Of a DNA stretch of 64,000 nt, positions 2,312 to 47,818 are shown one piece after another. The translations under genes were made by a program, and so were the position numbers. The stretch is from Pseudomonas phage EL, in the sequence record AJ697969.1; one strand, given 5' to 3'. The stretch's first letter is position 1, and the number at the start of each line of letters is the position of its first letter. The notes beneath the pieces were generated by a model. That model had not been told where the DNA came from. It did not search any database and saw only the letters and a list, made by a program, of their open reading frames with translations.

Positions 2312-2362
2312 TACCCTCCCTACCCCGCAAAGGGTAGGGAGGGTATGCAGTACACCTTTTTT
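2312..2362 (+). terminator. 14-bp stem hairpin TACCCTCCCTACCC/GGGTAGGGAGGGTA followed by T-run, between convergent genes
   Basis: perfect inverted repeat with 6-nt loop, then TTTTTTG. Confidence 0.45.
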
Positions 2363-2364
2363 GT

Positions 2365-3273: not shown

Positions 3274-3283
3274 CTTTCATTCC

Positions 3284-5452
3284 TCAGGCCGCAGTAGTGG
3301 CCAGATCCTGTTGGTTGTAAGCGTAGAGATCGAATTCCATCATGTACTTGGCTTTGTTAAACCAAGCGTGGAGAATCACACGCAGTTTCGCACGGGATCC
3401 GAGCGTTCCAGTTTCGTAGAACGTTTCTGCGACGATGTTGGAGACTTCACCCCCTACTGCGTTACGGCACGCGCTCTCGATCTCGTCTTTCATGATGGAG
3501 GCGTAGTTATCTGCGGTGATGGTACGGTCACCACAAACGATGCGCCATTGATCCGCGGAGATCTTCTCCATCGCCACGCACAGGAACGGGTTAGCCAGGT
3601 CCTTGAGGACCGAGTCGGGGTTCGGGTGAATGGTGGGGAGGCCCGGACGGTACGTTTGAACGTTCCAGTCCCAAGGCTTCAGGGAGATATGGCCGTTGCT
3701 GAAGTTCTCAGCCGCCACTTCATCTTCTTCGAAGACGATGTTGGGGGAGTGCATCAGACGGAGTTTACGGTTATCCGCATGATCCGGTGCGTTCGGAGTG
3801 ACGATCAAACCGTCGATGTTACCTGCCCACAGCGCAAAGGCATAGGCCAGGTCGATGTTACCCGAGAAGTACCAGCCGGTCGGTTCATCGGTGACTTTCG
3901 CTTCGATGAGGTTCACAGCTGCACGGCAGGCTGGGGTACCCCACTTCTCAGACTCGACCGTCATGCGCAGTCGATTGGTGATCATTGCAGCCCGAGAATA
4001 GATCTCTTCGAGACTGTTCTTCTCACCCGGTCTCCAGACACAGGCGTCTGCCACAACCAGAATGTCCTTACGGGCACCCAGGAACTGTTCGGCGATATCT
4101 TTTACTTCTTGGGAATAACCAATATCCCAGAAGATCGATTGACGGTTACGGGTGGTGTCTTTCATTTCCACACCATTCACGTAACTGGTCAGATCCGCCA
4201 CCATCAGTTTGTTGGTGATTTCCCACGCCTGAAGGTGAGTGAGAGGACGCTCGGTGTTAGTCAGCAGACCAAAGGGATCGTTGACTGTCGGCTTGGTAAC
4301 GTAATCAGGTACCTTACCGTCCTTATCCAGGAACGGCGAAATACCGCCCGAGGATTTAATAGCGCCGCTCAGGTCCCACTTGATAACACCCGAGGTGGTG
4401 ATGGCGTAGTAAGGCGCGCCGTTGTGGTTGGTGCAGGTGAACGGGTTCATCTGCTTGTAGTACTCACCGGGAACACCGACTTCTACCAGGGTATCATTTT
4501 CCGGCTGTTCCACCACATACATCATCTGACACAGGGTGTCGATGTTGTCCTGGTAAACGACCAGGTCGTTGAACGGAGCCGGAACCGGGTTACCCGGGGC
4601 GTTCTTGTTACGACCAGTAAAGGAGCCGAAACCCGTTTGCAGGCTGTACTGAACGCCGTTGAGGGACACCGGGAACAGGGTGAACTTGGCACTTTCCTGT
4701 TGGAGGGTGGTTTTCGAATACACACGAGTCCCATCGACTCCATCGGTGAACTGACGGAGGTCGTAAGGGAAAGTCCCCGTGGACCGAACGAATTCGGAAA
4801 TGGAACGCCAATTCAGCGCGTCCGCACGGACACCCAGGTTAAGGCCCGACTTGTTGTATTCGTCACCGACACCAGCCACCCCTTCGAACAGGGGGAGTAC
4901 CAGGGTTTCAGGGGTATCACCACTGGCGGCGATGGTGCGGACTTCGAGCGCGCCGGGTTCTTTACCCGCTGCGGCATCATCGATTTTGATTTCGATGTTC
5001 AGACCGTTCGGGTAGGTTTTACCCGGGATCGGAATACGCTCGCCGTTTTCGTTATACTTCCAACGGCCGTTGGCATCTCGTTCGTAGGCCTGAACTTCCA
5101 CTTTCTGAACAAACGCAGAGAGCGAGGCTTTCGAGACCACTTCGTTGACCGAGAGGCGGCGAATGCCGATGGTATTCTGGCGACCCAGGGCGAGCGCCTG
5201 GATCAGGACCGACGTTGGGCCGTAGTAGGGCGACTTCTCGTCGAAAATGTCACCAAAGATCTTTTTGACGTCTTGGGGGGCTACCCATTGGGTGCCTGCT
5301 TTAGACGCCAGTTTTCCTTTGGGGAAGATACCGTGGATAACAGGAAGGTGGAGCGGGGTGGTTGGCGGGGACGTGTCATATTCTGGAATAGAGTTGTCCC
5401 GAATCCCACTAATGTCCACCTTTCCAGGGACGATTCTGTTGAAAACAGTCAT
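3284..5452 (-). CDS. large virion structural protein candidate (722 aa; e.g. tail sheath or capsid class)
   Basis: ORF with highly optimised codon usage; start chosen at MTVFNRIV (ATG complement at 5450..5452) because GAGG lies 6 nt upstream on the minus strand. The longer ORF to 5539 has no RBS. Confidence 0.55.
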   Translation of the reverse strand: MTVFNRIVPGKVDISGIRDNSIPEYDTSPPTTPLHLPVIHGIFPKGKLASKAGTQWVAPQDVKKIFGDIFDEKSPYYGPTSVLIQALALGRQNTIGIRRLSVNEVVSKASLSAFVQKVEVQAYERDANGRWKYNENGERIPIPGKTYPNGLNIEIKIDDAAAGKEPGALEVRTIAASGDTPETLVLPLFEGVAGVGDEYNKSGLNLGVRADALNWRSISEFVRSTGTFPYDLRQFTDGVDGTRVYSKTTLQQESAKFTLFPVSLNGVQYSLQTGFGSFTGRNKNAPGNPVPAPFNDLVVYQDNIDTLCQMMYVVEQPENDTLVEVGVPGEYYKQMNPFTCTNHNGAPYYAITTSGVIKWDLSGAIKSSGGISPFLDKDGKVPDYVTKPTVNDPFGLLTNTERPLTHLQAWEITNKLMVADLTSYVNGVEMKDTTRNRQSIFWDIGYSQEVKDIAEQFLGARKDILVVADACVWRPGEKNSLEEIYSRAAMITNRLRMTVESEKWGTPACRAAVNLIEAKVTDEPTGWYFSGNIDLAYAFALWAGNIDGLIVTPNAPDHADNRKLRLMHSPNIVFEEDEVAAENFSNGHISLKPWDWNVQTYRPGLPTIHPNPDSVLKDLANPFLCVAMEKISADQWRIVCGDRTITADNYASIMKDEIESACRNAVGGEVSNIVAETFYETGTLGSRAKLRVILHAWFNKAKYMMEFDLYAYNQQDLATTAA

Positions 5453-5561
5453 GGCAACCTCGTGGGGGAAAAGTTTGAAGCAATCGTATGAACCCATTTT
5501 CAGGGCCGTACAGTGTAATAAGGCACTGTCACATAACATGTTATTTTAAGGAATATCTACC

Positions 5562-6440
5562 ATGCTGATCAATGCCTATGACACCACGGTCGGTAAAGTG
5601 ATCCGGGCGTCTCACCACGTGGACGAAGTCATTAAAACCCTTCATCTGACCAATAATCTGTCTCCCACTAAGAAAGACAAGGTGTACGTTATTACGCACG
5701 CCACCAGCGTTCCATTTTCAACCATTGCTTTTCCGATTACCTTGCAGACCCATACCCGCCAAACCATTACGGTGTATGACGAACGTCCGTACCGGGATAA
5801 ACAGAACCGAGTCACGAACCAGAATGACCTGACCATTATGCGACTGGCGGCGTTTCTACAGCAGGATGTTGCCGAGTTGAACTTCAGCCCGGTTAAGCTG
5901 AGTCGCAATATGGTAACCAAAGCCTTTAGTGACGCGTTAACCCAACGGTTAACGATGCGGGGTGGTTTGGATATCGTAGAGTCTTCGACCCTGAAGGTGT
6001 TGATTGGGTATTATGTGGTTAGTCTTCAAGAGAACCCGAACAATGACCTGGTCTTTGTGGTTGAGAATGTCCTTCGTAATGTGTACGGGATGGAAAAAGA
6101 CTTTGTATTGGGGGTCATTGCTGATCTCCCCCATCTGAGTAAGCTGGAAGACCTCCTCAGTGAGATTCGTAAGAATCCTGTGTTGTATAAACTCAAAGGG
6201 ATGGGTCTTAAGGACTTCATTGCTGTGGTGGGTGGATTGGCCTTTACGGGGCTGGGGAAACAGGTCTTTGAAGCTGCGTCTGAAGCACCTTGCTTGTTGA
6301 CGGCCTTTGTCTATGGCGCAGCACGTTTCAGGGCGCTGAATAAAACACCGCTGGGTATGGCATTGGATCCTAAATACAACAAAGGGATCCTGGATACCTT
6401 CCTTAAGAACATCGATTACACGTATGATCTCAACGGGTAA
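5562..6440 (+). CDS. hypothetical protein (292 aa)
   Basis: ORF, first of a tightly packed plus-strand block 5562..10992. Confidence 0.55.
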   Translation: MLINAYDTTVGKVIRASHHVDEVIKTLHLTNNLSPTKKDKVYVITHATSVPFSTIAFPITLQTHTRQTITVYDERPYRDKQNRVTNQNDLTIMRLAAFLQQDVAELNFSPVKLSRNMVTKAFSDALTQRLTMRGGLDIVESSTLKVLIGYYVVSLQENPNNDLVFVVENVLRNVYGMEKDFVLGVIADLPHLSKLEDLLSEIRKNPVLYKLKGMGLKDFIAVVGGLAFTGLGKQVFEAASEAPCLLTAFVYGAARFRALNKTPLGMALDPKYNKGILDTFLKNIDYTYDLNG

Positions 6441-11077: not shown

Positions 11078-14000
11078 ATGACAGACGAACAAGACACATC
11101 CCTTTCCTATGCTAAATGGTTGGTTAAGTACCTGAGATGCAACAACCTGCCCAAAGAACTGATCGATGATAAACGCCTCCGTATTGATTGGGAGGCTCGA
11201 ACAGACGATGAAACCCTTTTAGCTCACTTCAATGAAGACAGCTTAAGTGGTATTAAGACTGTTCGTTTTCTCAAGGACTTTTTCAACTACCAAGCGGGTT
11301 ATGATCGGGAGACCCGGAATACCAGTTTCCTCAGAACCACCGAAGTGTTCAGGCAACAGGGGATCAATAACTTTTACTTCATCCTCCAATTGAACAATCC
11401 CCTGTTGAAAGGGGTGGATCCCTTTGATCCTAACCTCACTCCTGAGCAACAGGTGTGGGTCCTGGAGGAGTGTCGGAGTAACTTTTGGTACTTCCTACGG
11501 GAAGTTTGCCGGTTAAAGCCGAATCAGCCCTTCTTAGCGAACCGGGGGAATATCAGCTTTATTTGGTCGTATTTGAATCACATTACCACCTACATGATCA
11601 TGCCGCGGCAACAGGGTAAGCAGCAGCGGAACAGTGCTAAGGTTCGTATTGTGCCTAAGGATACCCTGAAGACTATTACCCCTCAGGATACTTGGAAACG
11701 GATTGAACACCTACGGGTGGGGGATCAAGTCCTGGACCGTTCCGGGAAGCCGTGTCAGGTGATTGGCATTCATCCCCAGGGTAAACGCCGGTTGTATCGC
11801 GTCATTACCAGTGACGGACGAGCCACGGATGTAGGGACTGAACATCTGTGGACCTTGAAGGATTATTCCAACTGCCTCAATGGACGTGCACTCTGGAATG
11901 ACTATTCGACCGTTGATGTCATTAACCTGTTGAAGAAGAAGGTTAAACTTCAATTGCCGTTACCGGCTCCGGTACCCGGGAGTGAACAGGACCTACCTAT
12001 TGACCCGTACGTTCTCGGGTTGATCTATTGCGGACAAGATCAAGACGGTAAGGTTATTATCCCCACGCGTACGGATGCGGTTAAACAGTACGTAGTTGAT
12101 CATCTCCCTCGGGGGGTAACAGTTATTCAGGGAGTGGCTAACAGTTGCTTAGAACGGACTGATAACCAACCTTATTTATTCAACAGGGAACACGGTTTAC
12201 CGGATCAATACCTAGAAGCCCCTTTAAACGCCCGGAGAGACCTCTTACAGGCGTTTTTAGACGTTAGGGGTAAGGTTGGTAGGGGTAAGGTCTTTATAGC
12301 CTTAAATCGCGTCCTAGGAGGTCAACTGGCGTATTTAGCCCGTAGTCTAGGTGGAACCGGTAAAGTCACCAAGAACGGAGTAGAGATTACCCTACCGGAA
12401 GAGGTGCCTCCGTTCAAGTTCAGGGAAGAGAATGTCGTCTTTGATAATCGGTTGCTGATCGAGCGGGTGACTTTCGTAGGGGATGACGATTGTACCTGTA
12501 TTGAAGTCGATAACAGTGAACAGTTGTATTTGACCGATGACTTCATTGTGACCCACAACACGGTATCGGTTCAGGTGATTGACTTCTGGTTAACGTACAT
12601 CATGGGCCGGGGGTATACGAGCCACTTGATTACCTTGAAGTCGGATAACCGAGCTCAGTTCATTGCGGCTATTAAGCAGATACGGAGTTCCATTCCCTCG
12701 TATTTGATTAACTCGACCTACAAGGACAAGGATGCTGGTACCAGTCTGACCTACAAGGCCTTTGGGGAAGATAACGTTAATACGCTGTACATTAACGTCC
12801 CTCAGATCAGTCAGGATGCAGCAGGGGATCTCGGTCGGGGGTTACGGGTAGGGACTACCAACTACGATGAGTCCGGGTATATTCGGTTCATCGACACCAT
12901 CATTGACGGGTGTTCCCCGTCCTCGCTAACGGAAATGGCGTTGTGCAGAGAGCAGGGGTTGCCGTATGGGATTACGCACATTACGACCCCCAATACCACG
13001 CTCCATCCCAGCGGGGAGTTTATGTTCAATAAACTCATGAGTGCAACGGAGTGGCGGGAGAAGTTCTTTGATTGCTTCAGTGAGAGTCACTTGAGGCAGA
13101 TGTTACTCAGGGCTTCCCCTACGAAGACAACCTCTCCGTCAGTCTCCATGGTGTACAATTACCTTCAACTGGGTAAGGACAAAGCCTGGGTGCGGGAAAC
13201 CATTGACCTGCTAGGATTGAGTTTGGCGAAAGCCAAGATCGACTTATTGCTCATGTGGGTGGAAGATGGGGAGAATCGGTTGTTTGACGATGTGACCCGG
13301 GAAGCCATTAACAACATGAAGCGGGACGTGGTGTGGAGTAAGGAGTATCGGGACTGTAACCTGTACGTGGACTTCTTTGTGACCCAACAGGAATTGTTGG
13401 AGATGGCAAAGAAGGAGTACAATGACCATTTCCTGATTGGTGTGGATACGTCCTCAGCCATTAACAAGGATGCCTGCACCATTGTGATTCGCAGTATGAA
13501 GACGGGTAAGGTCATTGGGGTGGGACGATATCCCTTAACCTTCTTGGATGATGTCACAGCCATTGTTGTGGATTTGCTGGACGTGATTCAGAACAGCACC
13601 TTGATCATAGAGCGTAACTACGCACATCACATGATCGACAGTCTGTTGATTATGCTGCCGGCTAAGGGTATGGATCCCTTTAAACGGGTCTTTAACCAAA
13701 TCTACCAAGACACCGTCAATAACGCCAAGGAGTTTGAGGAAGTCCAGAACACCAAATTTGCTTACCGGAATAAAGCGTTCTACCTGAAGTATAAACAATA
13801 CTTCGGGTTCGTGACGACCAAGACCACTCGGGACGTCCTGTACGGCCTCATCCAAGAGGCGGTTGGGAATACCGGGTACGGCCTCTGTTATGCGAAGCTC
13901 GCGGATGAATTGATCAACCTGAAACTCAAGGGGGATCGAATCGACCACGATGCGAAGCAGCACGATGACTTGGTCATTGCGTGGCTACTGAGCTACTGGT

Positions 14001-14344
14001 TCATTAAGCTCGGGGAGAACAAGTCCTTGTACGGGATCCCTCCGGGGATTGCCTTAACGGACACCCGTAACCTACTGAACTCTGCTCAGAACCAAGGACG
14101 AACCGAGTATGAGCCGTACGTGGTTCAACTCATCGATAAAGTCCGGAGTAAGGTTCACAGCCTAACTGAAGAACTGATGAGCACCCAGGACAATATCTTA
14201 GCACTTCGTCTAGAGGTGGAGATTCGGAAGTTAGCCAAGATGTTGCCTCCGGAACAGAATCGCATGATGACCATTGACGTGCTGTTGGAGAACGCTAAAG
14301 TGGAACGCAACAAACGCCTACTGCAACAACGCAGAACAGCATAA
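11078..14344 (+). CDS. terL: terminase large subunit, interrupted by an in-frame intein
   Basis: Extein N-part ends ...MPRQQGK and C-part resumes TVSVQVIDFW, reconstituting a T4 gp17-like Walker A (RQQGKT). The C-terminal region FLIGVDTSSAINKDACTIV ... HDDLVIAWLLSYW is the RNaseH-like terminase nuclease domain. Confidence 0.8.
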   Translation: MTDEQDTSLSYAKWLVKYLRCNNLPKELIDDKRLRIDWEARTDDETLLAHFNEDSLSGIKTVRFLKDFFNYQAGYDRETRNTSFLRTTEVFRQQGINNFYFILQLNNPLLKGVDPFDPNLTPEQQVWVLEECRSNFWYFLREVCRLKPNQPFLANRGNISFIWSYLNHITTYMIMPRQQGKQQRNSAKVRIVPKDTLKTITPQDTWKRIEHLRVGDQVLDRSGKPCQVIGIHPQGKRRLYRVITSDGRATDVGTEHLWTLKDYSNCLNGRALWNDYSTVDVINLLKKKVKLQLPLPAPVPGSEQDLPIDPYVLGLIYCGQDQDGKVIIPTRTDAVKQYVVDHLPRGVTVIQGVANSCLERTDNQPYLFNREHGLPDQYLEAPLNARRDLLQAFLDVRGKVGRGKVFIALNRVLGGQLAYLARSLGGTGKVTKNGVEITLPEEVPPFKFREENVVFDNRLLIERVTFVGDDDCTCIEVDNSEQLYLTDDFIVTHNTVSVQVIDFWLTYIMGRGYTSHLITLKSDNRAQFIAAIKQIRSSIPSYLINSTYKDKDAGTSLTYKAFGEDNVNTLYINVPQISQDAAGDLGRGLRVGTTNYDESGYIRFIDTIIDGCSPSSLTEMALCREQGLPYGITHITTPNTTLHPSGEFMFNKLMSATEWREKFFDCFSESHLRQMLLRASPTKTTSPSVSMVYNYLQLGKDKAWVRETIDLLGLSLAKAKIDLLLMWVEDGENRLFDDVTREAINNMKRDVVWSKEYRDCNLYVDFFVTQQELLEMAKKEYNDHFLIGVDTSSAINKDACTIVIRSMKTGKVIGVGRYPLTFLDDVTAIVVDLLDVIQNSTLIIERNYAHHMIDSLLIMLPAKGMDPFKRVFNQIYQDTVNNAKEFEEVQNTKFAYRNKAFYLKYKQYFGFVTTKTTRDVLYGLIQEAVGNTGYGLCYAKLADELINLKLKGDRIDHDAKQHDDLVIAWLLSYWFIKLGENKSLYGIPPGIALTDTRNLLNSAQNQGRTEYEPYVVQLIDKVRSKVHSLTEELMSTQDNILALRLEVEIRKLAKMLPPEQNRMMTIDVLLENAKVERNKRLLQQRRTA
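11621..12559 (+). mobile_element. intein with LAGLIDADG-type homing endonuclease remnant, inserted in the terminase P-loop after GK
   Basis: ends ...LYLTDDFIVTHN with +1 Thr; internal HPQGKRRLYRV...DGRATDVGTEHLW Hint block; LGLIYCGQDQDG and LLQAFLDVRGKV LAGLIDADG-like blocks; first residue Gln (non-nucleophilic). Confidence 0.65.
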
Positions 14345-26125: not shown

Positions 26126-28138
26126 ATGGCTGTGAATAAAGGTCGTTCGTCCGAATCCACCACTCCGAACTCTTCCTGGACCGATGAAGAAGCCGGCGAT
26201 AACGGTTTGAGCGCCAGCGTACGTCAAGACACCACCGGTCTGTCGGGCCTCTTCAGCCTGACCTCGATGACTTCGGACAACCGCAATATGGTGGAAGTCT
26301 CCGAAGTCGCCAAGATCCTCAAGGAACGTTTCACCCGTATCGCGGAGGCTACCACTCCGGAAGCTCAGCGCAACATCGTTCCGAACGTGGATGAAATGAC
26401 CGCCGGCATCTCCAGCATCCTCCCGGGCCTGGTACTGCACAAAGTCATCAACAACAAACTCTGGGTAATGGGTGTCCTGTTCTCCAACAAGGACCTGACC
26501 ATTTCCTCGGAGCCGATCCGTATCAACACCCTCAACGGTATCCAACAGCAAATCTCGGTGCCGCTGACCCCGACCAACTACGCCAACGAAGCGGTCATGA
26601 AGAACTTGGTGTCTTATTACACCCGTGTGGCGGAACAGCAAGGTGCGAAAGGGGTTGAAGTCATCAACATGGTCGTGGTTGACCTGGAGATGCTGAACCA
26701 CCCGGAAGCCGGCGATCCCAAGGACCGTCCGGCCAAGCTGGCGGGTTACCTCACCAACCAGTGGGAAACCGGTGTTCTGGTCCGTGCGACCATCGAGATC
26801 GCCAGCGCTGGCGTTCCGCTGCCGTCCCCGTTCGCGGATCCGAAGCATCCCTTCGGTAAAGACGGTTGTGCGGAAGCGCGGGTTACCGCTATCCAAGAAC
26901 GTGTTACCAAGGCGTTCACCCTGAGCGCTGCGAACATGGAAGTGGTGGCGGCTACCATCAGCGACCTCAACCGTAGTGGTGGTGTCTCTTCCCAGAACAA
27001 CAGCAAGGAGATCGCACGCGCTACGGCTATCGTCAGCCTGGCAGGTATCACCATGCAGGCTCACCAAGCCAACCTGGCTGCCAGCCGCGGTGCCGCTCAG
27101 CACAATGACCTGATCAATCAGTTCCTGAACCTGACCGGTGGTGTTTACCCGCACGGCTACCGTCCGCTGCACCCGGTGATCACCATGGAAACCGCGTACG
27201 CCGGTGAAATGATGAACTTCAACCAGGGTCTGTTCCCGTTCTTCTTCGGGCTGTACCTGCTGATGACCACCAACACCGACTACGTCTTCTCTGAAGCACT
27301 GCGTAAGGTGAGCGTGGGTCAACGGGGTAACCTGAGTGCACTGGAACCGCGTATCGACAGTCTGCTGGGTGGTGTGAACCCGCCGAACCGTCTGAAACTG
27401 AATGACAAAAACATCACGGATATCGATGTTGTTAACCAATGGATTCGTCAGAACGTTTCGCAACACGCGATCTTCCGTTCGAACATCGTCCTGAATGGTC
27501 CGGATTCCGCGATCAACAACTTCCTCAGCCGGCTGAGCCAGCAAAACCGTTCTAAGGAAGTGGGGATTGTGGTATCGGTGATCGATGCGATGACCAAGAA
27601 CAAGTTCTCTCAGATCATCGAGCAGAACCGTTCGGCGCGCACCGGTTGGACTCCGGAAAAACCGGTCCTGCACCGCACCCCGATCCTGGTGGTCAACGGC
27701 TTGGCTGAAGCGCCCAATGGTAAGAAACTGAATACCTTGGAAGTGGATGAAATGCTGCTGGGCCACTACAAAGGTGCGAACGGTGCCCAGGCGATGATGA
27801 ACTACCTGGCGGTCATGTACGGTGTTACCAACGAAGACCCCAAAGCCCGTTGCCAGAAGCTCAACCTGGAGCTGAACCAATCGCTGTTCAACGGCGCGGT
27901 TCACATCAACAGCTACTCGCAAGCGGCGGTCTGGGATCCGAACTTCATGGCAGCCCTGGCGCAAGCTATGGAAAGCCTGGGTAGCATGAACGCAGCGAAC
28001 TCCGCGGCCAGCTTCCGTCCGAATCAGGCTGTTTATGTGCCGGGTGCAGGTCTGGCTACTACTGCCTTTGCAGGTGGTAGTTCCCTGTCCAACCCGAACC
28101 TCATGAACGCCTTCCTGGGCGGTTTTGCGTTCGGCTGA
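26126..28138 (+). CDS. highly expressed 670-aa protein; candidate major structural protein (phage-nucleus shell/chimallin-like or capsid) - function unproven
   Basis: Strongest codon optimisation in the window (CGT/CTG/AAC/ACC/GGT/CCG almost exclusively); GGAG RBS; own strong terminator; disordered acidic N-terminus and Gly/hydrophobic C-terminal tail. The 632-aa antisense ORF is an artefact of codon bias. Confidence 0.65.
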   Translation: MAVNKGRSSESTTPNSSWTDEEAGDNGLSASVRQDTTGLSGLFSLTSMTSDNRNMVEVSEVAKILKERFTRIAEATTPEAQRNIVPNVDEMTAGISSILPGLVLHKVINNKLWVMGVLFSNKDLTISSEPIRINTLNGIQQQISVPLTPTNYANEAVMKNLVSYYTRVAEQQGAKGVEVINMVVVDLEMLNHPEAGDPKDRPAKLAGYLTNQWETGVLVRATIEIASAGVPLPSPFADPKHPFGKDGCAEARVTAIQERVTKAFTLSAANMEVVAATISDLNRSGGVSSQNNSKEIARATAIVSLAGITMQAHQANLAASRGAAQHNDLINQFLNLTGGVYPHGYRPLHPVITMETAYAGEMMNFNQGLFPFFFGLYLLMTTNTDYVFSEALRKVSVGQRGNLSALEPRIDSLLGGVNPPNRLKLNDKNITDIDVVNQWIRQNVSQHAIFRSNIVLNGPDSAINNFLSRLSQQNRSKEVGIVVSVIDAMTKNKFSQIIEQNRSARTGWTPEKPVLHRTPILVVNGLAEAPNGKKLNTLEVDEMLLGHYKGANGAQAMMNYLAVMYGVTNEDPKARCQKLNLELNQSLFNGAVHINSYSQAAVWDPNFMAALAQAMESLGSMNAANSAASFRPNQAVYVPGAGLATTAFAGGSSLSNPNLMNAFLGGFAFG

Positions 28139-28225: not shown

Positions 28226-29668
28226 ATGGAACTACCTGAACTGACTCCGAGTCTTTCGTTGGCCATTAAACGGTTAACGGAATACAGTGAAGAAGTGCTG
28301 GATCCCCTTAAGGACTTTGTCGGCTACGCCAGTAAGCTGGATTTTTCCTTGGAGGATGATCCTCGGTTCTCGATGCCGGCCTATCCCGATTTTGAAGACT
28401 ACGACTACCTGCACGATACCAGCCGTCTTAAGCAAGTCTACCTGAATGACTTCGATTTCAATCTGGAAGAAGACCGAGAAGCCCTCAGTCGTTTAACCCG
28501 GATGGAGTTTGAGGGTAATTCGTTTGATACCGTTGCGCGGTGTTTGTGTAAGGACGGCAAGGGACTCCGGGGTAACTACCTCCTGGGTACCGAACGGGTG
28601 TGTCCACGGTGTGGGAGTAAAGCAGAACTCTTCTTGGATCAAGGGGAAGACACCCGGATCTGGCTCAAATGCCCCGAAGGGGTGAAGAAGTTCGTTAATA
28701 TCGGGTTCTTTACGACCTTCTTTAACAATATCAGCATAGGAAACCCGTCCCCCAAGATCAATGTACCGCGTTACTTCATTGATCCTCTGTATCGAACCAA
28801 GGTTAAGAAGCAACGGAATGGAACCCTCATTGCCATTAACCAGATGCTCGGTGACTTGGAGATCCACCATGTCGACCTGAACACGTTCTATGATCACTGT
28901 GATCGGATCATGGAATACATTCTGGTAGGTCCAGGTGAGCGCTGGTCGAAGTACCGGGGAGGGGAAGGTGCTGAGATCCTGGAACTGTATCATCGGTATA
29001 AACACATCGCGTTCTGTAATTACATGAAGGTACCCAGTCGGTACTGCATGGTGCTGGAACGGGTGGGTAAAGAAGTCCGGAGTTATGAGCATCAGCCTGA
29101 AACAGCGAAGCTCTATAACGCCATTGCGGATACCATGAAGTCCAGCAATTGTTATCAGCTCACTGAAAAGGACTTGCAACGCAATGTGGACATTGTGGGT
29201 AAGAACCTGGTGGCGTTAGCTGATCAATTCAGGAGTGTCAATAACCCCAAAGCCGTGTTTAATAAACACGGGATCAACCGTAAGCATGTGTGCGCAGGTC
29301 CGGTGCCATTAACGGGACGGTCGGTGATTACCTCTCAAACGGGTATTATTAATCACTCTGAAGTGATTATGCCGTGGAAGATGGTCGTTACCATCCTGGA
29401 ACAACCCATTACGAACCACCTCTATCGGTTAGGGCATACCCCCCGGAGTGCCCGTAAGCTGATCTATAACGCGGCCTATCGGATCGTTCCAGAAATCGAT
29501 GCGTTCTTACGGCGTGCGGAGGAGAGTCGTAAAGTCCTGGTTCAAATGGGGCGTAACCCCTCGATTGAGTACCTCAGTCGGCGCACCAATTACCTGAGGG
29601 TGAACCGGGATCTGGAAGATGAGAGTATTAAGATCCCCATTACTTCAGTCGGTCCTTACAATGCTTAA
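28226..29668 (+). CDS. RNA polymerase beta' subunit, N-terminal part (exon 1), ending exactly at ...YNA of the NADFDGD catalytic motif
   Basis: RCLCKDGKGLRG...VCPRCGS matches the beta' N-terminal zinc ribbon (E. coli ECLCGKYKRLKHRG..ICEKCGV); C-terminal ESIKIPITSVGPYNA aligns to KAIQLHPLVCAAYNA(DFDGD). Confidence 0.65.
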   Translation: MELPELTPSLSLAIKRLTEYSEEVLDPLKDFVGYASKLDFSLEDDPRFSMPAYPDFEDYDYLHDTSRLKQVYLNDFDFNLEEDREALSRLTRMEFEGNSFDTVARCLCKDGKGLRGNYLLGTERVCPRCGSKAELFLDQGEDTRIWLKCPEGVKKFVNIGFFTTFFNNISIGNPSPKINVPRYFIDPLYRTKVKKQRNGTLIAINQMLGDLEIHHVDLNTFYDHCDRIMEYILVGPGERWSKYRGGEGAEILELYHRYKHIAFCNYMKVPSRYCMVLERVGKEVRSYEHQPETAKLYNAIADTMKSSNCYQLTEKDLQRNVDIVGKNLVALADQFRSVNNPKAVFNKHGINRKHVCAGPVPLTGRSVITSQTGIINHSEVIMPWKMVVTILEQPITNHLYRLGHTPRSARKLIYNAAYRIVPEIDAFLRRAEESRKVLVQMGRNPSIEYLSRRTNYLRVNRDLEDESIKIPITSVGPYNA

Positions 29669-31082
29669 CAATGATTACCCTATTCCTCTACCAGGAGGAA
29701 TTCGTGCAGATAGAAAGGATATACACAACTCCTATTGAACATCCAGAGGAAGTTGGGTTTTATAAACATCCAACATTGCCGATTTGGTTGTCTAAAGACG
29801 ACGATCGGATCCTCACAGAAACAGGTTTCGTGGAACCAAGCATAGGCGGCGAATACAAGTACTACATTCGTCAGCACCTCCATGTGTTGAAACTAGAGAC
29901 ATTTCTTGAGAAGCCCAGCTCAACTATCAAGTTGTGGGGGAATCACAGGGATGGCGACAAGCGCAATAATCACCTGGAAAACTTGGAGTGGTGTACTCCG
30001 TCAATGAATTTGATCCATGCGTTTAAGACCGGTCTTAGGTCGGATAACCTTCCCGGTTTACTCACCGATCTAGAAACAGGTGAGGTCAAATCATTTACGA
30101 GTTTAAGGGAATGCGCTACCTACTTAGGTATCAATCCTGGTACACTCACTGTTTACATGAAATCTGATAGAAAGTATCCGCTCAAGTTTAAGTACTCTGT
30201 GCGTCTAATATCGGAAGAGCCTAGCAAACTGACTGCTGACGACATTGGTAAAGTAAGGAAGGGTGGACCCAAACCTTGCAAGATCGTCAATAAACTCACT
30301 GGCGAAATAAAGCATCTGGCCTTTGAGAAAAGCATTCAGGAACTGTTCGGTTTATCTGAGAGACGTTATCAGCGTGCTTTGAAAGAACGTGGATACGAAG
30401 ACTGGATTTTCGAAGAAGTGAAGACGTATGAAGAATACGTCGAGTGTTTAAAGGATGATAAGGCGAAGACTGTAAAGTCTAACCGACATCTTTCTTTAGT
30501 CAAGGAAAAACAGTTGGCTACAGCTAAGAAGATTGTGGTTACTAACAATCTGACAGGCGAAATAACTGAATTCGACAATCTTAGTGACTTCTCAATGGAG
30601 AATGGTTTCATGATAAGCGAGATCAACCGCGCTTTGAAAACCAAAGATTCATGGAGAGAATTCACATTTAAATATCTGGAATAGGGTAATTGTTAAAGGC
30701 TCACCAGGCACGAAAGTCCTGGATGAGAATCTCTTTAATTGCTGGAACACCCACAAAAGTGAACCACCTTACGTAACCGTAAGGGGACGAAAGTCAGAAA
30801 CAACGGTTCACCTGTCCTACGCTAACCAATAACGCTAAGGGATACTGACAAGGGGCAACCAGCAGCGAAGCCTGTTGTTATTCAACAGGAACGTTCAACG
30901 GCCATTCGATGACCCGTAATCTGATTACGGCGAGAAGTAGGGTAGCAAGCTAATGGCACCCGAAACAGGAGACACCTAATCCCTAACCGGGAATGGTGAT
31001 GATATGGTCTGACCACGGTTTAATAGACCGTGCAGGTGTCTGTGCACACCGGGTAATGAGTAGCGTCATTACTGGACAAGTG
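29669..31082 (+). mobile_element. putative self-splicing group I intron carrying an HNH homing endonuclease ORF, inserted inside the beta' NADFDGD codons
   Basis: 5' exon ends in U (gcT); the proposed intron ends in G immediately before gat ttt gat ggt gat (DFDGD); the 3' ~400 nt (30685..31082) is non-coding and full of GNRA (GAAA) tetraloop hairpins and nested stems; HEG has divergent AT-rich codon usage. Confidence 0.5.
29671..30684 (+). CDS. HNH homing endonuclease with C-terminal NUMOD-like DNA-binding repeats
   Basis: WGNHRDGDKRNNHLENLEWCTPSMN is a classic phage HNH motif (H-N-H with invariant Asn); three helix-turn-helix-like repeats (ECATYLGINPGTLTVYM, ELFGLSERRYQRALKERG, MENGFMISEINRALKT); codon usage distinct from neighbours. 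Confidence 0.75.
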   Translation: MITLFLYQEEFVQIERIYTTPIEHPEEVGFYKHPTLPIWLSKDDDRILTETGFVEPSIGGEYKYYIRQHLHVLKLETFLEKPSSTIKLWGNHRDGDKRNNHLENLEWCTPSMNLIHAFKTGLRSDNLPGLLTDLETGEVKSFTSLRECATYLGINPGTLTVYMKSDRKYPLKFKYSVRLISEEPSKLTADDIGKVRKGGPKPCKIVNKLTGEIKHLAFEKSIQELFGLSERRYQRALKERGYEDWIFEEVKTYEEYVECLKDDKAKTVKSNRHLSLVKEKQLATAKKIVVTNNLTGEITEFDNLSDFSMENGFMISEINRALKTKDSWREFTFKYLE

Positions 31083-31274
31083 GATTTTGATGGTGATTCC
31101 ATGTATGCCATCTTCTTGATTGACTTGGAGTCTAAAGCGAAAGCCTACGGGGGATTAGGTCATCATCAGGTATTGGATAACAACGTTCCCTTCAAGATCA
31201 GCAAGTATGCGGGACAAACCGCTACCAACCTGATGAACTTCAATACCCTCATGCTACAGAAACCGATTGAGTAA
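31083..31274 (+). CDS. RNA polymerase beta' N-terminal part, exon 2 (begins DFDGDSMYAIF...). Alternatively an independently translated fragment 30993..31274 if the gene is split rather than spliced
   Basis: ITGQV-DFDGDSMYAIF matches the beta' Mg-binding motif NADFDGDQMAVHV; in frame with ORF 30993..31274. Confidence 0.5.
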   Translation, partial: DFDGDSMYAIFLIDLESKAKAYGGLGHHQVLDNNVPFKISKYAGQTATNLMNFNTLMLQKPIE

Positions 31275-41044: not shown

Positions 41045-42187
41045 ATGGAATACTTAACGACCCAACGAAGTCGATTGTATCCCAACCTGGATACTCGTCT
41101 GGTATTAAACAAAACCATAGGGTGTTCACGTTTCATATGGAACGCTCTACTGGGTAATCATAAGGAAGAATACGGTCTTTGGGTAGAGGATCCAGAAACT
41201 CATCCTAAACCGAGTTGTTCTTTAAGTTCCTTTAATCAAAAGCTGAACGAACTTAAAGTTGAATACCCCTGGTTAAATGAGGTCAGTTCTGTTGCTTTAC
41301 AACAAACAGTTCTTCATTTAACCAAGGCTTTTAGTGAGTTCTTCCAGGGTATTCATGGTTATCCAAAATTTAAATCTAAACGAGATCCCGGTGGATTTAA
41401 CCTCAGTAGTGCAGCGGGAACTTTAGCCAAGGACGGCAAGATTCGAATCCCCAAGATAAAGGGATACACCACCTGTCGACCTAAGCTCCCGTTGGATCAG
41501 GAAATTAGGAACTACAGCATTGTCAAAGACCGGGTTGGGAATTACTTTGTCAATTGCTTAGTAACTAAACCTTGTCTACCGAATACGGCTAAAGGTCAAG
41601 GACTGGTGGGGGTTGATCTGGGGATTAAATCCTTAGCGGTGGCGAAGCGGTCTACAGGTGAAATCTTTACCTTGGAGAATCCTCGAACCTACATGAAGTA
41701 CCACCGTAGACGTGTACGACTTCAACGGCGATTAGCCAAGAAACAGAAAGGGAGTCAAAACCGTAATAAAGCTAGAATTAAACTGGCCAAACTAGAACGT
41801 AAGGTCGGCAATATTCGCAAGAACACCCTGGATACCTTCACCTCTAAACTGATTAGCGAAAACCAAGTAATCAGTATTGAGGATTTGAATGTTAAAGGGA
41901 TGCTGAAAAACAGCCGGTTGGCTAAGCATATCCAAGACTGTGGATTTAGCACCCTCCGGAGGATGTTGGAACACAAGGCTAAACGGTATGAATCACCGGT
42001 TATTATTAGCCTGGTCCATCGATTTTACCCCAGCACCCAGTGTTGTTCAGCGTGTGGTATTAAACGTGAGATCAAACTGACCCTTAATGACCGGGAATGG
42101 ACCTGCGCTGAATGCGGGACCTCTCACGACAGAGACATCAATGCTGCAACGAATATCCTGTATGAAGGACTTCGGTTAGTGGTCTGA
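41045..42187 (+). CDS. tnpB: IS200/IS605-family TnpB (OrfB) RNA-guided nuclease
   Basis: RuvC-I GVDLGIKSLAV, RuvC-II VISIEDLNVKGM, zinc finger CCSACG...CAECG, RuvC-III HDRDINAATNI; 380 aa; AT-rich codon usage unlike the flanking phage genes. Confidence 0.85.
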   Translation: MEYLTTQRSRLYPNLDTRLVLNKTIGCSRFIWNALLGNHKEEYGLWVEDPETHPKPSCSLSSFNQKLNELKVEYPWLNEVSSVALQQTVLHLTKAFSEFFQGIHGYPKFKSKRDPGGFNLSSAAGTLAKDGKIRIPKIKGYTTCRPKLPLDQEIRNYSIVKDRVGNYFVNCLVTKPCLPNTAKGQGLVGVDLGIKSLAVAKRSTGEIFTLENPRTYMKYHRRRVRLQRRLAKKQKGSQNRNKARIKLAKLERKVGNIRKNTLDTFTSKLISENQVISIEDLNVKGMLKNSRLAKHIQDCGFSTLRRMLEHKAKRYESPVIISLVHRFYPSTQCCSACGIKREIKLTLNDREWTCAECGTSHDRDINAATNILYEGLRLVV

Positions 42188-42361: not shown

Positions 42362-44668
42362 ATGAGTAAAGAAAAATTGAATCAGGACCTGAAAGGTGTA
42401 AGTAGTGAGATCCGTGCCGCACTGGGTGCAGAGGATACGGATCTTACCCCTGACAGTGCAGCGGGTCAATTCCTCCAGGAAGTCCGTTACAAGTATCCCT
42501 GCGGGGAGAATCAAATCCATCCTGCTTTAGTGGGTGTCAGCAGTAACCTGATTCTCTTCCCGCACGAAGCCTCCGCGGGTCGTCTCTATATGGCGGGTAA
42601 CATGATCCCTAAATCCGTGCCGACCGAAGGAGCGGGTGAACGGATGATGGTAACCGGGTACGAATTTGAGGAACATTACGGTGGAACGGCTCGTAAGGTC
42701 GAAGCCCCTGCGAATATGCTGGTGGAAGAGATCTTCTTCGTTCAGAGTCTGGTTCCGGGTAAGGATACGGATGACTGGAATTCGATTTACGTGGTCTTTA
42801 AGAACGACGAACAGAACGCCTACGACCTTCTGGAGCTACCTCGGTATAACACCCATAACCACTACGTTGGGTTCGAATATAAATACGATAAAGAGAAACT
42901 CCGTAAGCTCCGTAAAGGTGCCACTTTCGCTAAAGGGACCGTCTTCGCTAAGAGTCCCCGTATCAGTGAGAATGGGGAATGGTGTTTTGCAATGCCGACC
43001 TTGGTAGCCGCCTATTCGGACCAAAGGACTGAGGAGGATGGCGTGCTTATCACCCGTTCCTATGCGGAACGTTCGGCTTGTATGTTCAAGCACGAGTTCA
43101 GCTATGAATGGAATGAGGATGAATGGATTCCTCTGATGCTGTACGGAACGGACGAGAACCCCCAACCGCTCCCTGAGTCGGGTGATAACATCCGTGAGGA
43201 TGGGATCGTCATGGGCTTCCGTCGCCGCATCAAAGAGAACGCGCTGGTTTCCCTGACCAAGAAGTCCCTACGAGAACCGGATCTGGTGTACGACAAGTTG
43301 TTCTATGCGCCGGTGGATGCGGTTGTGATGTCAGTCACTGTTCGGTCGGATCGGATGAAGAACCGGTCCAATAACCGGGGAACGGATTACATCGAACAAC
43401 ACCACAATGCCATGCTGGACCGCTATGAGAAACGCCAGAATGAAATGTGGAACAATGTGATCCGGTGGTACGAAGGGAAGATCGCTGCCAACCGCGGGGA
43501 AGACATTCCCATTACCTTTGACCTCGATACCTTCATTCGGAACGCGTATGGTAACTATACCCGCAATGGGTTGGGTCGTATTAACCCGTTGGCCCGAGTG
43601 GAACGGTGGGATAAACTGAAAGATTGGAACGTGACCATCGAACTGAAGGAACGGGTCAAAGGTCGTGTTAAATTCAAGTACGCGGGTTTGAACGGTGACA
43701 AAGGGGTGTGTGTACGGGTCATTGAAGACGACGAAGCTCCCACCTATCCGGATGGGACTCGGGCGGAGTTCATTAAAGATAACGTACCGGCGTTCCGTCG
43801 CCAGATCTTTTCGTTGCTCATGGAACTGAGTATCAACTATGTGAACATGAACGTTCAACGGGAAGTCAGACACCTACGGCTACAAGGGGATTATGAAGGC
43901 GCTTTCCAGGCGTTGATGACGTTCTATGAAACCGGTTTCCCTGAATTCAGTGAATTGGTTGCTCATGCGTTGGTTACGGAGGAGGAGAAACGTGAGCACG
44001 TCGACGATGTCTGTCGCCGGAAGATTTCCGTGCATGTGGTCAGTAACACGAAGTTGTATGGCGTGAACCTGATCAACGCCCTGCGTCGTCAATACCCGTA
44101 TAAGCCGCAGAAAGCCATTATCGTGAACGCACTGGGAGAACGGGTGGAAACCGAGAACCCTATCCTTATCAGCTGTCAGGACATTATGCTCCTGGATAAG
44201 TTTGGTACGGACATGAGTGCGCAGAGTATGCCGAAGGCTAACCTCTTTGGTATGCCAGCGAAGATGAACGAAGGCAGTAAATACGCCACCCCCATGAAAG
44301 ACAGTAATAACAAGAATACCGGTGAAACCGAAGGCCGGTTGCAAGTCAGTCACGCGGGCGGGCAGGAAATGATCAAGCAACTGGCTCTGGCGTATTCCCC
44401 CGAGAACCAGAAAAAAGCCTCCCAACGGGTTATTCGTGCGGATGATCCGTTTGAGATTCCTCGGTTGATTAAACCGGAGGAGTATTTGGGGAATCGGGCG
44501 TTGAAAATGGCGGTGGGAATGTTGTCGGATTCGGGTTATCGGCTGCGAGCTGAACTACCCAGTGATCGTCGGGAATATCCAACCTTTAACATGGATGAAA
44601 TCCCAGGGTTAGATGACGAGACCTTGAAGCAGCTTCAGTCATCCGAGAAACCCACTCAAGAACCTTAA
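42362..44668 (+). CDS. multisubunit RNA polymerase beta subunit, C-terminal half (separate polypeptide)
   Basis: [27 protein letters not shown] ~ [39 protein letters not shown] ~ [30 protein letters not shown] ~ FGGQRFGEMEVWALEAYGA. Confidence 0.7.
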   Translation: [768 protein letters not shown]

Positions 44669-44707: not shown

Positions 44708-47700
44708 ATGGTAATGAAGATCAAACTCCGTGAATGGGCTAATTTACCAGAAGAAACTGTTCTCCGTTGGTTAAACACCCGCCGGTGGGTGGAGGTCACG
44801 GATGACCTGGACCAAGTCGCTCTAACGGATACCTACGCTCTGATCATTACCTGGCATGGAATGATCATCCACCGGCATTATAACGATGTCCCCTATTCCA
44901 TTAAGGAGATGGTACCCAGTAACAAGGTGGAAGGGGGTGAAGACACCGTCTATAACGATGGAACCAACGCGACGCCTATTAACCAGTTCTTAAAGGTCAT
45001 TCTTCCTACGATTATTGACCCGGTGGAAGTGGACGGGATTAAACGGCTTATTCATATCTGGCAGAATAAGCTGAATAACCTGCTGGTGGTGATGAGTGAA
45101 CGTTACGTTATTTCAGCCACCGCTGAATCCGTAGCGGAGTTCATGGAAGATGAAGGGATCTCTGGAATACGGGACCGTGTCCTGAGCAAGGAGATTTCAA
45201 TTGATGAGGGTGAGCGGGAGTTTGCGGATTATGTCCGGACCGCTCATTCCATTGCCAACAACACCCTCACCCTGCTGTCGCGTACGGGCGGGGTGGCCAT
45301 TAACCAGGCGTATCAGAAGACGATCATCCGGGGTAAAGTCTTTGACCTGAACAACTCGATCATGCCGAATGCGATTACGGTTCCGTATGCGCATGGGATT
45401 ACCAACCTGGCTGATATGCTGGGTGAACGGAATGCAGCAGGTAAAGCCGGGGTTTTGTCTTCAAAGATAAAAATCCCTGGTGGATGGAAGACCATGGGTA
45501 ACATCCGGGTGGGTGATGAAGTCGTTACACCCGATGGAGGTACCGCTAAGGTGCTGGCAGTTCACCCACAAGGTGTAACCAAGGTTGTACGGGTGCACTT
45601 CAAAGACGGTCGATATACTGACGTTAGTCCAGATCACCTGTGGAAGGTTAGACGTCATCATTGGTGCAACGATAAAGCCATGGCTAAACTCACTCGGGAG
45701 GAAGTGGAAGAACGTGTATGGCGAGTCATCACCACCAATGAGTTGAAAGACTATATTGGTCTGTCAACTAAGGTATACGTCCAACTGATTGAACCTGAAA
45801 GAAATGCCGATAAACCCTTCAAAATTCACCCGTATGTGCTCGGTGTCTTGTTGGGGGATGGATGCATTAGTCAAAAGGCTGTGGATATCACCAAACCTTA
45901 TCAACAGCTATTCGATAAGGTCCAATCGCTATTGCCAGAACATTTGGAATGTGTTTGGCGACCCAACCGTAAAGGTGATGGAGAACCTAAAACGTTTGGG
46001 ATCCGTTTTAAAGATCGTCGGTCCGAACAGCACATCAACTGGCATATCCGTGATGGCCTGAAGGAACTGGGCTTGTATGGAATGCGGTCGTGGGGAAAAG
46101 TCATTCCCGAAGAATATCTTCACGGATCGGCTAAACAACGTTTGGAGCTCCTCCAAGGACTGTTGGACACAGACGGAACTGTGGACAAACACAAATCGGT
46201 TAGCTTTAGCTCTTCGTCTAAGTTACTCTCCCTCGGAGTGCAATACTTGGTCAGAAGCCTAGGGGGGATGGCACGTCTCCAAGAACGTACTCCCCACTAC
46301 ACCCACAATGGAGAAAAAAGGGAAGGTCGTACGGACTATCGGGTTTATATCCGATACCCTCGACCAGAAGAACTCTTCACCCTAGACCACAAACGGGAAC
46401 GTGCGGTCTCGCACCAGCATACGGAAACCCTGAGACTGCAAGTAACTCATATTGAAGAACGTCCTGATGAGGAGACACAATGCATTACGATCGATCATCC
46501 TGATCATCTGTACATTACAGACGACTTCATTGTCACCCACAACAGCCTAACCAATAACGGCAAGGCCCTGAAATCATCGGAATGGTTCCACCGGAAGGTA
46601 CACATCCTGTCCGCTGTGGTGGCGGATATCGATCATTTCATGGACTGTGGAACGACCACTACAGTGCCGATCCGAATTCCCAATATGCAAGCGGCAATGG
46701 CACTGTTGGGTAAATTCAGGGTAACCGATACAGGAGAATTAGAACTCATTGATCAAACCACGGTGTGGTCAATTAAGCCAGGGGAGTGGGTTAATATTCG
46801 TAGTGTGGCCTTCTGTAATCACTACAATAGTGCTTCACCCTGCCGGGTATGCTACGGGATGATGGCGAGCTCTATCCCGTATAACGTGATGATGAAGAAA
46901 GGGGCTGATGTCGGGATGTGGTGTACCACCTCGATCTGTAACCCCATCGGCCAGGGAATGCTCTCCACCAAGCATTTCATTAGGAATGCAACGACCCGTA
47001 AGTTCGTTCCTGCGACTAAGGATAAGAACGTTATCTATTCCAATGGTGACGATATTTTCCTGACTAAGGAACTCTGTGCACCGGGCACTGAATTGGTGCT
47101 CAAAGCCGATATTGTAAACATCCTCTCGGATATCCGTTCCTTGGATGTTCTGGACAACTTGAGCCTGGATAAACTCCCGTACTTCTCTGAAGTCACATTC
47201 CGCTATGAAGTCGAAGACATCATGATGGGGGGTAAAACCCTCCAGCAGCATGCGGCTTGTACCTCGGTGTCGTCTCGGAATGCCCGGTTCTCGTTGGAGT
47301 TCCTGAACTATCTCCTGAGTAAAGGTTGGGCGAACGAAGGTAAGAAACATATTACCGTTGATTTGAGTGAATGGAATACGCTCAGTCCTATCTTCACACT
47401 GCCGTATGTTCGTGAAGACTTGGACATGCACCGGGCTCGGGTAGAGAACTTCATCACGTTCAATAAACGCAATAACGCCTGGAGACAGCAGATCGTTACA
47501 CCCCGTCTCTTTGGTGAGGTCTTAGCGGAATACTGGGGATTGATCAACCAGGAAACGAAAGGGATTAACATCATCCATCCTGAGGTCTTGCTCTATTCCA
47601 CGTTGTGTCGGGATCCCATGCGCGGGGATTATTCCCTGGCGAATGGTAAAGGACCTAAGTATTTCGTGAACTTCCAGGAGTGTATCAAAGGCAGGGGGGC

Positions 47701-47818
47701 GGGTATGCTCATGATCTACGAGAACCAGCAAAATGTGCTAAGTGATCCTAAGACATTCCGTGTGGTAAACCGTCAGGGGAGTCCGCTGGAGTGCTTCTTT
47801 AGCTTAGCGGTGAGTTGA
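44708..47818 (+). CDS. multisubunit RNA polymerase beta' subunit, C-terminal part, interrupted by an intein in the bridge helix
   Basis: after in-silico splicing, [28 protein letters not shown] ~ [28 protein letters not shown] (bridge helix); [21 protein letters not shown] ~ [45 protein letters not shown] ~ [25 protein letters not shown] (trigger loop). Confidence 0.75.
   Translation: [1036 protein letters not shown]
45446..46543 (+). mobile_element. intein with full LAGLIDADG homing endonuclease, inserted after GK in the beta' bridge helix
   Basis: starts [17 protein letters not shown] (Ala1), Hint block [39 protein letters not shown] motifs [13 protein letters not shown] and [12 protein letters not shown], ends [12 protein letters not shown] with +1 Ser. 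Confidence 0.7.

Follow-up and report, generated by a model that had tools for sequence, protein, structure and literature searches.

The gene for the N-terminal part of the beta' subunit (beta'-N) of the non-virion RNA polymerase (RNAP) of Pseudomonas phage EL is interrupted, inside its catalytic NADFDGD motif, by an insert of 1417 nt. We analyzed a 64,000-nt stretch of the EL genome (record AJ697969.1), hereafter the window, in which the insert occupies positions 29666..31082 of the + strand, and conclude with considerable confidence that it is a mobile group I intron carrying a homing-endonuclease gene of the HNH/NUMOD1 type. On the basis of the sequence, the EL polymerase subunit is almost certainly made whole by RNA splicing.

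Boundaries of the insert and the interrupted gene

The borders of the insert were set by the uninterrupted allele of phage GXNNE2, one of the EL-like Pseudomonas phages (genus Elvirus, Chimalliviridae) that are siblings of the window at 97-98% identity. Exon 1 ends with GGT CCT TAC AAT GCT (...SVGPYNA), its last coding base being T29665, and the TAA that follows (29666-29668) is the first triplet of the insert and stops the exon-1 frame. Exon 2 opens at 31083 with GAT TTT GAT GGT GAT (DFDGD), directly after G31082. The boundaries are unambiguous because neither end of the insert repeats the adjoining exon base. When 29665 was joined to 31083 in silico, the DNA around the junction was identical to that of GXNNE2, and the insert is missing base for base in GXNNE2 and GXNNA8; these two genomes match 62% of the query as two pieces that abut each other, and their coding sequence (CDS) is a continuous 543 codons. 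Precise removal of the insert restores the reading frame and gives a product of 543 aa, 541 of which are identical to the continuous GXNNE2 CDS. This product keeps ...SVGPYNADFDGDSMYAIF... whole (YNADFDGD), its peptide across the junction is ...GPYNADFDGDSMY..., and the intron-less GXNNE2 allele reads GATTTTGATGGT at the junction. An earlier note, made from the letters without database searches, had placed the insert at 29669..31082, with DFDGD codons resuming at 31083, U as the last base of exon 1 and G as the last base of the insert. The 3' end, the resumption point and both terminal bases (U29665 and G31082) were right, whereas the 5' end was three bases off by comparison with the GXNNE2 allele: exon 1 does end in ...SVGPYNA before a TAA, but that TAA belongs to the insert.

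The joined product matched the PHROG family 'RNA polymerase beta subunit' (E 1e-148) and, over residues 50-520, chain A of PDB entry 7OGP ('PHIKZ055 | PHIKZ056.1', the phiKZ gp55 orthologue; E 3.6e-20). In that polymerase structure a single uninterrupted chain of the phiKZ orthologue runs through NADFDGD. The neighboring nuclear shell gene provides the genomic context that identifies the next gene as the predicted equivalent of phiKZ gp55. The main features of the locus are as follows.

26126..28138, +, nuclear shell protein (chimallin); PHROG phrog_4795, E 1e-167, annotated likewise in sibling phages
28226..29665, +, exon 1 of the non-virion RNAP beta'-N gene, 480 codons; exact match to CAG27118.1, with U29665 as predicted 5' splice site
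29666..31082, +, probable group I intron, 1417 nt, with TAA first and G31082 terminal; absent in GXNNE2, matched by Rfam RF00028
30993..31082, +, intron-internal part of open reading frame (ORF) 30993..31274 (EL gp026), with its ATG in the 3' strand of helix P8
31083..31274, +, exon 2, DFDGDSMYAIF...QKPIE, 63 codons and stop; matched by PHROG phrog_34135

In the EL record the locus is annotated as three CDSs whose products match its three ORFs exactly, namely CAG27118.1 (480 aa, 'RNA polymerase beta subunit'), CAG27119.1 (gp025, 326 aa, 'putative replication protein') and CAG27120.1 (93 aa, 'hypothetical protein PPEV_gp026'). None of the EL or sibling records examined annotates the insert as an intron. 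The abstract of the EL genome paper of 2005 (Hertveldt) is said to mention, in general terms, HNH and LAGLIDADG endonucleases 'associated with group I intron and intein'. As ATG 30993 lies within the 3' strand of P8, we judge the start of gp026, and with it the intron-internal part of ORF 30993..31274, to be an annotation artefact. In addition, phrog_34135 (62 aa, function unknown) matches residues 485-537 of the joined protein, that is, exon 2, which suggests a family of orphan exon-2 peptides. The EL reference annotation would thus be corrected to one polymerase gene with an intron-encoded endonuclease in place of gp024, gp025 and gp026; the same misannotation recurs in sibling genomes and appears to have spawned the PHROG family just mentioned.

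The predicted ribozyme and its putative endonuclease gene

The Rfam group I intron model RF00028 matched 30681..31032 (+) over its full length (1-253) with 54.9 bits, compared with a gathering threshold of 50 (E 1.6e-12 in a 3-kb search). A chance match is excluded by the E value of 3.4e-11 in the whole window, in which this was the sole Rfam match at the gathering threshold. Relatives of the ribozyme were found in the record of phage vB_PQ1 (an ORF-less variant, 86% identical), in Klebsiella phage phiKp_32 and at eight more loci, the latter found by scanning viral and metagenome contigs for a DNA pattern conserved in the ribozyme; a search of IMG/VR with the HNH protein gave no match. Six relatives were aligned by MAFFT, blind to structure, and a consensus was calculated by RNAalifold, which holds P2, P3, P4, P5 and its branches, P7.2, P8, P9, P9.1 and P9.2. 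We edited this consensus by adding P7 as a pseudoknot and dropping three spurious helices, and excluded P1 and one P5a strand, both misaligned by MAFFT, from the covariation count. Across 15 helices in the six homologues, 96.6% of the cells were standard pairs and 32 of the 74 pairs showed a compensatory change. None of 500 shuffles reached that covariation, and sliding the partners by 1-3 columns left 36-44% paired. P7 was 100% paired, with one compensatory pair (C-G to U-A). Covariation thus supports the core helices from P2 to P9.2, including the P3/P7 pseudoknot, and the single-sequence fold of the ribozyme core had a z score of -3.66. The elements of the intron are listed below.

29663..29665, +, 5' strand of P1, exon GCU; can pair with guide GGC 30698-30700, as read from the sequence
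29670..29681, +, 5' strand of the P1 extension; forms 12 bp with 30683-30694, 2 of them G-U, and buries ATG 29671
29704..30684, +, HNH/NUMOD1 homing-endonuclease gene (predicted), in loop L1; Pfam and PHROG matches, exact match to CAG27119.1
30683..31082, +, ribozyme core, from the Rfam alignment, RNAalifold and pair counts
30683-30700, 3' strand of the P1 extension, and guide
30703-30723, P2
30730-35/30967-72, P3
30739-45/30859-65, P4
30750-52/30853-55, P5, with a branched extension at 30759-30844
30871-77/30883-89, P6a
30900-04/31005-09, P7
30914-30, P7.1
30940-61, P7.2
30973-98, P8
31014-32, P9
31033-51, P9.1
31052-73, P9.2

At the 5' splice site U29665 can sit opposite G30698 as a wobble. 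The guide bases G, G and C are conserved in five, six and six of the six aligned homologues, respectively, a PDCC-1-like relative reading GTC, and exon ...AATGCT precedes the intron in five of the six. The 3' terminus ...UGGACAA(N2-3)G is common to all homologues, and its terminal base in EL is G31082. Two hairpins, P7.1 and P7.2, separate the 5' strand of P7 from the 3' strand of P3, and two more follow P9. Such paired P7.1/P7.2 and P9.1/P9.2 hairpins are the pattern of subgroup IA phage introns, and by these extra hairpins the EL intron looks IA-like. The td, nrdB and nrdD introns of phage T4 (subgroup IA2) resemble it in overall fold, with the same hairpins and, as in EL, an endonuclease ORF looped out of the core; the endonucleases of T4, however, belong to the GIY-YIG class or to a different HNH type and are encoded in other loops.

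Nine base pairs of the P1 extension were recovered by a single-sequence fold. Its loop (L1) encloses the whole HNH ORF, which is therefore located upstream of the ribozyme core and whose stop TAG (30682-84) abuts the returning strand. Phage phiKp_32 has the same layout with a different 14-bp stem, and in ORF-less versions of the EL intron the same stem closes a 21-nt loop; from these stems the endonuclease gene looks like an insertion into L1. As called mechanically, the ORF (29671..30684) opens with ATG 29671, which lies within the stem, 2 nt past the TAA, and would encode 337 aa, whereas GTG 29704 sits in the loop, has AGGAGG (29693-29698) five bases upstream and would give 326 aa. The latter is the start in the EL record and appears the more likely one. 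The product contains a putative HNH motif (NHRDGDKRNNHLENLEW) and matches Pfam NUMOD1 at residues 132-162 (E 3e-8, 34 bits against a cut-off of 22.8) as well as two PHROG HNH families (phrog_59 'HNH endonuclease', E 1e-25, and another at 3e-9). Over its whole length it shares 37% identity with the ORF that phiKp_32 has in the corresponding place of its intron. The GC content is 39-45% across the ORF and 47-52% in its flanks.

Most of what had been proposed for the interior of the insert from the letters alone was borne out. The complete HNH endonuclease gene is supported by the NUMOD1 and phrog_59 matches, with GTG 29704 as its likely start; its AT-richness is moderate. Hairpins with GAAA loops are found where they had been described, as P2 (30700-30727) and the P5 extension (30759-30811). 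The covariance model suggested as a check is positive, and a group I core can be folded, its P3/P7 pseudoknot being kept by covariation. The overall proposal of a group I intron with an HNH endonuclease agrees with this covariation and with the exact excision relative to the intron-less allele.

Insertions at the catalytic motif in related phages

The insertion site occurs in four states among EL-like phages: without intron, with intron and ORF, with the intron lacking its ORF, and with a different insert. The first is found in GXNNE2, GXNNA8 and the 543-aa members of the host protein cluster, which contains 480-aa, 490-aa and 543-aa forms, and the second in EL, phiRU, MIZ-Pa99 and IR-QUMS. 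The ORF-less EL intron (404-409 nt, same site) is present in four independent assemblies (metagenome or SRA contigs). An apparent tandem exon-end/intron arrangement in the vB_PQ1 record (PQ516283) was rejected, the record being a chimera put together from overlapping tiles of two or more variants and unreliable as a genome. The ORF-less intron of this record (2652-3055) was accepted because the four independent assemblies show the same.

The fourth state, found in HHBS8_1 (PQ287644) and HHBS47_1, is an insert of 1425 nt located 12 nt downstream of the EL site, after NADFDG/D (the slash marks the insertion point). In HHBS8_1 (locus L002, 1953-3377) it matches RF00028 with 39.9 bits (E 2.5e-7), below the gathering threshold, and has the ribozyme core first and then an HNH ORF of 330 aa (2342-3334 of the same locus), which shows only local similarity to the EL endonuclease (24-29% identity in two segments). 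Its P1 is formed by exon GACGGU and guide GCCGUC. The exon before this insert (L002 1941-1952) reads GAC TTC GAC GGT (GACTTCGACGGT), compared with GAT TTT GAT GGT in EL, MIZ-Pa99 and GXNNE2, and apart from these three synonymous changes in 9 bp the four alleles are identical from -68 to +201. The start of a homologous intron at this second site, with the same GACTTCGACGGT, is also present in Klebsiella phage Miami (about 4381-4392). The changes suggest that exon sequence arrived together with the intron or that the target of an endonuclease was recoded.

We designate the EL site NA/DFDGD as site A, DFDG/D as site B and DFDGD/ as site C. Site A is filled by the EL ribozyme family in three lineages: EL, the gp55-like gene of phiKp_32 (host protein 42% identical) and a third lineage of six 220-228-kb contigs (host protein about 20% identical), in which the intron is ORF-less and 350 nt long. 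The same family at the same site in divergent host genes is as predicted by homing to a conserved DNA target. Site B is filled in HHBS8_1 and, among distant chimalliviruses, in Miami, Vibrio phage USC-1 and Shewanella phage FishSpeaker, the last with a 395-nt ORF-less intron (72.5 bits). Both sites are filled in phiKp_32 (LC768500), in which a site-A intron with HNH ORF (4381-5810) is followed by a 12-nt micro-exon, GATTTTGACGGT (5811-5822), and then by a 311-nt insert (5823-6133) that matched no Rfam family at E up to 10 and no other locus collected. Site C is used in phiKZ-like phages. In fnug, of the phiKZ species, the gp55 orthologue has two group I matches (87.5 and 74.8 bits), each with an ORF: one (about 968-2208) splits ...FHRN/PTLQ..., ~35 codons upstream of the motif, and the other (about 2335-3846) follows NADFDGD/. 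As the fnug sites add to A and B, at least four insertion sites exist in the gp55-type gene across the family. Many other gp55 homologues match in two pieces by tblastn, which suggests further introns.

A related ribozyme (38.7 bits) was also observed at 11599-12010 of an IMG/VR contig of 237,509 bp, with the same P5 extension, the same ...UGGACAAUAAG end and a distant homologue of the EL endonuclease upstream. Its 3' flank is not DFDGD, and there was no beta'-N match within the locus.

Among known systems, I-HmuI, I-HmuII and I-BasI combine HNH with NUMOD-type modules; the group I introns that encode them interrupt conserved enzyme sites, here in the DNA polymerase of the Bacillus phages SPO1, SP82 and Bastille. 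Different endonucleases occupy the same or nearby sites in related Bacillus phages, and the ORF of these introns is not known to lie in the P1 loop. I-HmuI differs from the EL element in its host gene, and sequence similarity is limited to the motif (E 0.42). Introns at gp55/gp56, gp72 and gp179/gp180 have been mentioned for phiKZ (PMC11512511). The first of these (gp55/gp56/PHIKZ056.1) resembles that of EL, as the orthologous gene beside the nuclear shell gene contains, in the NADFDGD region, a group I intron with an HNH ORF. On the other hand, the fnug element is inserted 15 nt downstream of the EL position, uses P1 GGAGAU:GGUCUCC and has the ribozyme core first and the ORF after it, whereas the EL ORF is in the P1 loop; the two HNH proteins are about 26% identical over two thirds of their length, and the additional fnug intron ~35 codons upstream is another difference. 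The intron-encoded gp210 of PhiPA3 is a nicking endonuclease and was shown to impair phiKZ in co-infections (PMC11620839; Birkholz et al., 2024, Science). Like the EL element, it belongs to an HNH-bearing group I intron that interrupts a multisubunit RNAP gene of a nucleus-forming Pseudomonas jumbo phage where conserved catalytic aspartates are encoded, and its intron is polymorphic between relatives. It differs in that the host gene encodes the virion RNAP beta subunit (gp211/209) rather than the non-virion beta' of EL, and in that its activity and competitive effect were demonstrated experimentally, whereas the EL element is known here from sequence. Thus, the EL element is a further, distinct example of an established kind, the HNH group I introns in RNAP genes of such phages.

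Three other genes of the window should be noted, all on the + strand. A TnpB-type protein of 380 aa is encoded at 41045-42187 (OrfB_IS605, E 1e-22; Cas12f1-like TNB, E 1.5e-20; HTH_OrfB, E 5e-8), shortly before an RNAP beta-like ORF (42362-44668); in MIZ-Pa99 this gene seems to be missing from the position. The ORF at 44708-47818 (1036 aa), whose counterpart in MIZ-Pa99 is an RNAP beta subunit in two overlapping CDSs, contains a LAGLIDADG_3 domain (E 3e-11, residues 477-534) that is probably part of an intein with a homing endonuclease; if so, it would be a further mobile-element candidate in the window beside the intron and the TnpB gene. Finally, the ORF at 11078-14344 (1088 aa) carries the annotation terminase large subunit in MIZ-Pa99; its length would be unusual for a terminase, and it had no Pfam match at E 1e-3.

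Alternative explanations, proposed mechanism and biological meaning

Several observations weigh against an intron that both splices and homes. P1 with the exon amounts to no more than 3 bp and, beyond an internal loop, a fourth; the single-sequence minimum-free-energy fold misses this pairing with the guide. No convincing P10 was found, at most a pairing of 2-3 bp by eye; P10 is dispensable in many introns. Splicing in EL is deduced from sequence. The Pfam HNH_3 match (22.5 bits, E 8.6e-5) is below the cut-off of 24.8, and the motif aligns weakly with that of I-HmuI (1U3E, E 0.42), including His and Asn; endonuclease activity is therefore not certain. The exons flanking the EL intron are identical to those of the intron-less allele from -68 to +201, so that no co-conversion tract points to recent homing of this particular intron.

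The alternative that survives best, though we consider it fairly improbable, is that the intron still splices while its endonuclease is inactive or immobile, leaving a fixed, vertically inherited passenger. The HNH_3 score, marginally below its cut-off, and the missing co-conversion signature fit this explanation, and the ORF-less derivatives show that loss of the ORF happens. However, all 326-337 codons of the ORF are intact and its alignment with the 37%-identical homologue covers the full length, the His and Asn of the HNH motif are present, and phages that are 97-98% identical differ in the presence of the intron and carry a second one 12 nt away, which points to recent turnover.

Much less credible is a gene in pieces, in which a freestanding HNH gene has split beta'-N, the 480-aa protein and a DFDGD fragment assemble without splicing, and the ribozyme-like RNA is a dead relic. 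Split RNAP subunits are normal in such phages (PMC7598289), the database records carry three separate CDSs, P1 with the exon is short, and in-frame starts exist upstream of DFDGD (ATG 30993, and GTG 31080 directly before GAT). Nevertheless, the natural split of beta'-like subunits lies after the double-psi beta-barrel (DPBB) domain, outside NADFDGD (PMC7598289), and the one-chain phiKZ orthologue spans the motif. The in-frame starts upstream of exon 2 fall within structured RNA, ATG 30993 being inside P8, and no candidate start of exon 2 has a Shine-Dalgarno sequence. The ribozyme core is complete, scores above the Rfam threshold and is kept by compensatory changes, and ORF-less introns at the same site would make no sense after such a split. 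The possibility of a protein split by a freestanding endonuclease, which the earlier note had kept beside its intron proposal, is accordingly disfavored, exon 2 having no credible start or ribosome-binding site. An intein, removed at the protein level, can be dismissed: a LAGLIDADG domain typical of inteins does occur in another RNAP subunit gene of the window, but here TAA as the first triplet stops the exon-1 frame, the HNH ORF is in a different frame relative to exon 2, and ~400 nt of structured non-coding RNA follow the ORF.

Returning to the mobile group I intron, we infer the following course for the splicing chemistry, for the activity and specificity of the endonuclease and for ongoing mobility. 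In the folded pre-mRNA, guide GGC (30698-700) would base-pair with exon GCU (29663-65); free guanosine would attack after U29665, and the 3'-OH of exon 1 would then attack after G31082, joining AAT GCT to GAT TTT and giving a single 543-aa subunit. The HNH/NUMOD1 product would be translated from unspliced or excised RNA, from GTG 29704, which has an AGGAGG of its own. If it acts as I-HmuI and PhiPA3 gp210 do, it would nick or cut the intron-less site in co-infecting relatives, after which recombinational repair would copy the intron into the cut allele (homing).

A tentative extension, which we regard as possible and rather less than an even bet, is that the 15 bp coding for DFDGD in the non-virion RNAP beta' of chimalliviruses are an insertion target for which at least three unrelated HNH introns compete. 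Introns A and B of EL-like phages might then exclude each other and act as rival 'weapons' comparable to PhiPA3 gp210, with each endonuclease attacking alleles that lack its own intron, and the synonymous changes of the B allele may have been imported with that intron or may be a protective recoding against the A endonuclease. It should be noted that sites A and B can be filled together, as in phiKp_32, leaving the 12-nt micro-exon.

Our results do not change how such elements are known to work. They do bear on the recent finding that intron endonucleases of nucleus-forming phages act in virus-virus competition, and the EL-like phages would offer a natural test system for it: closely related, culturable P. 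aeruginosa phages either lack an intron or carry intron B or intron A, the latter with its ORF or without, and the insertion points are no more than 12 bp apart inside an essential catalytic motif.

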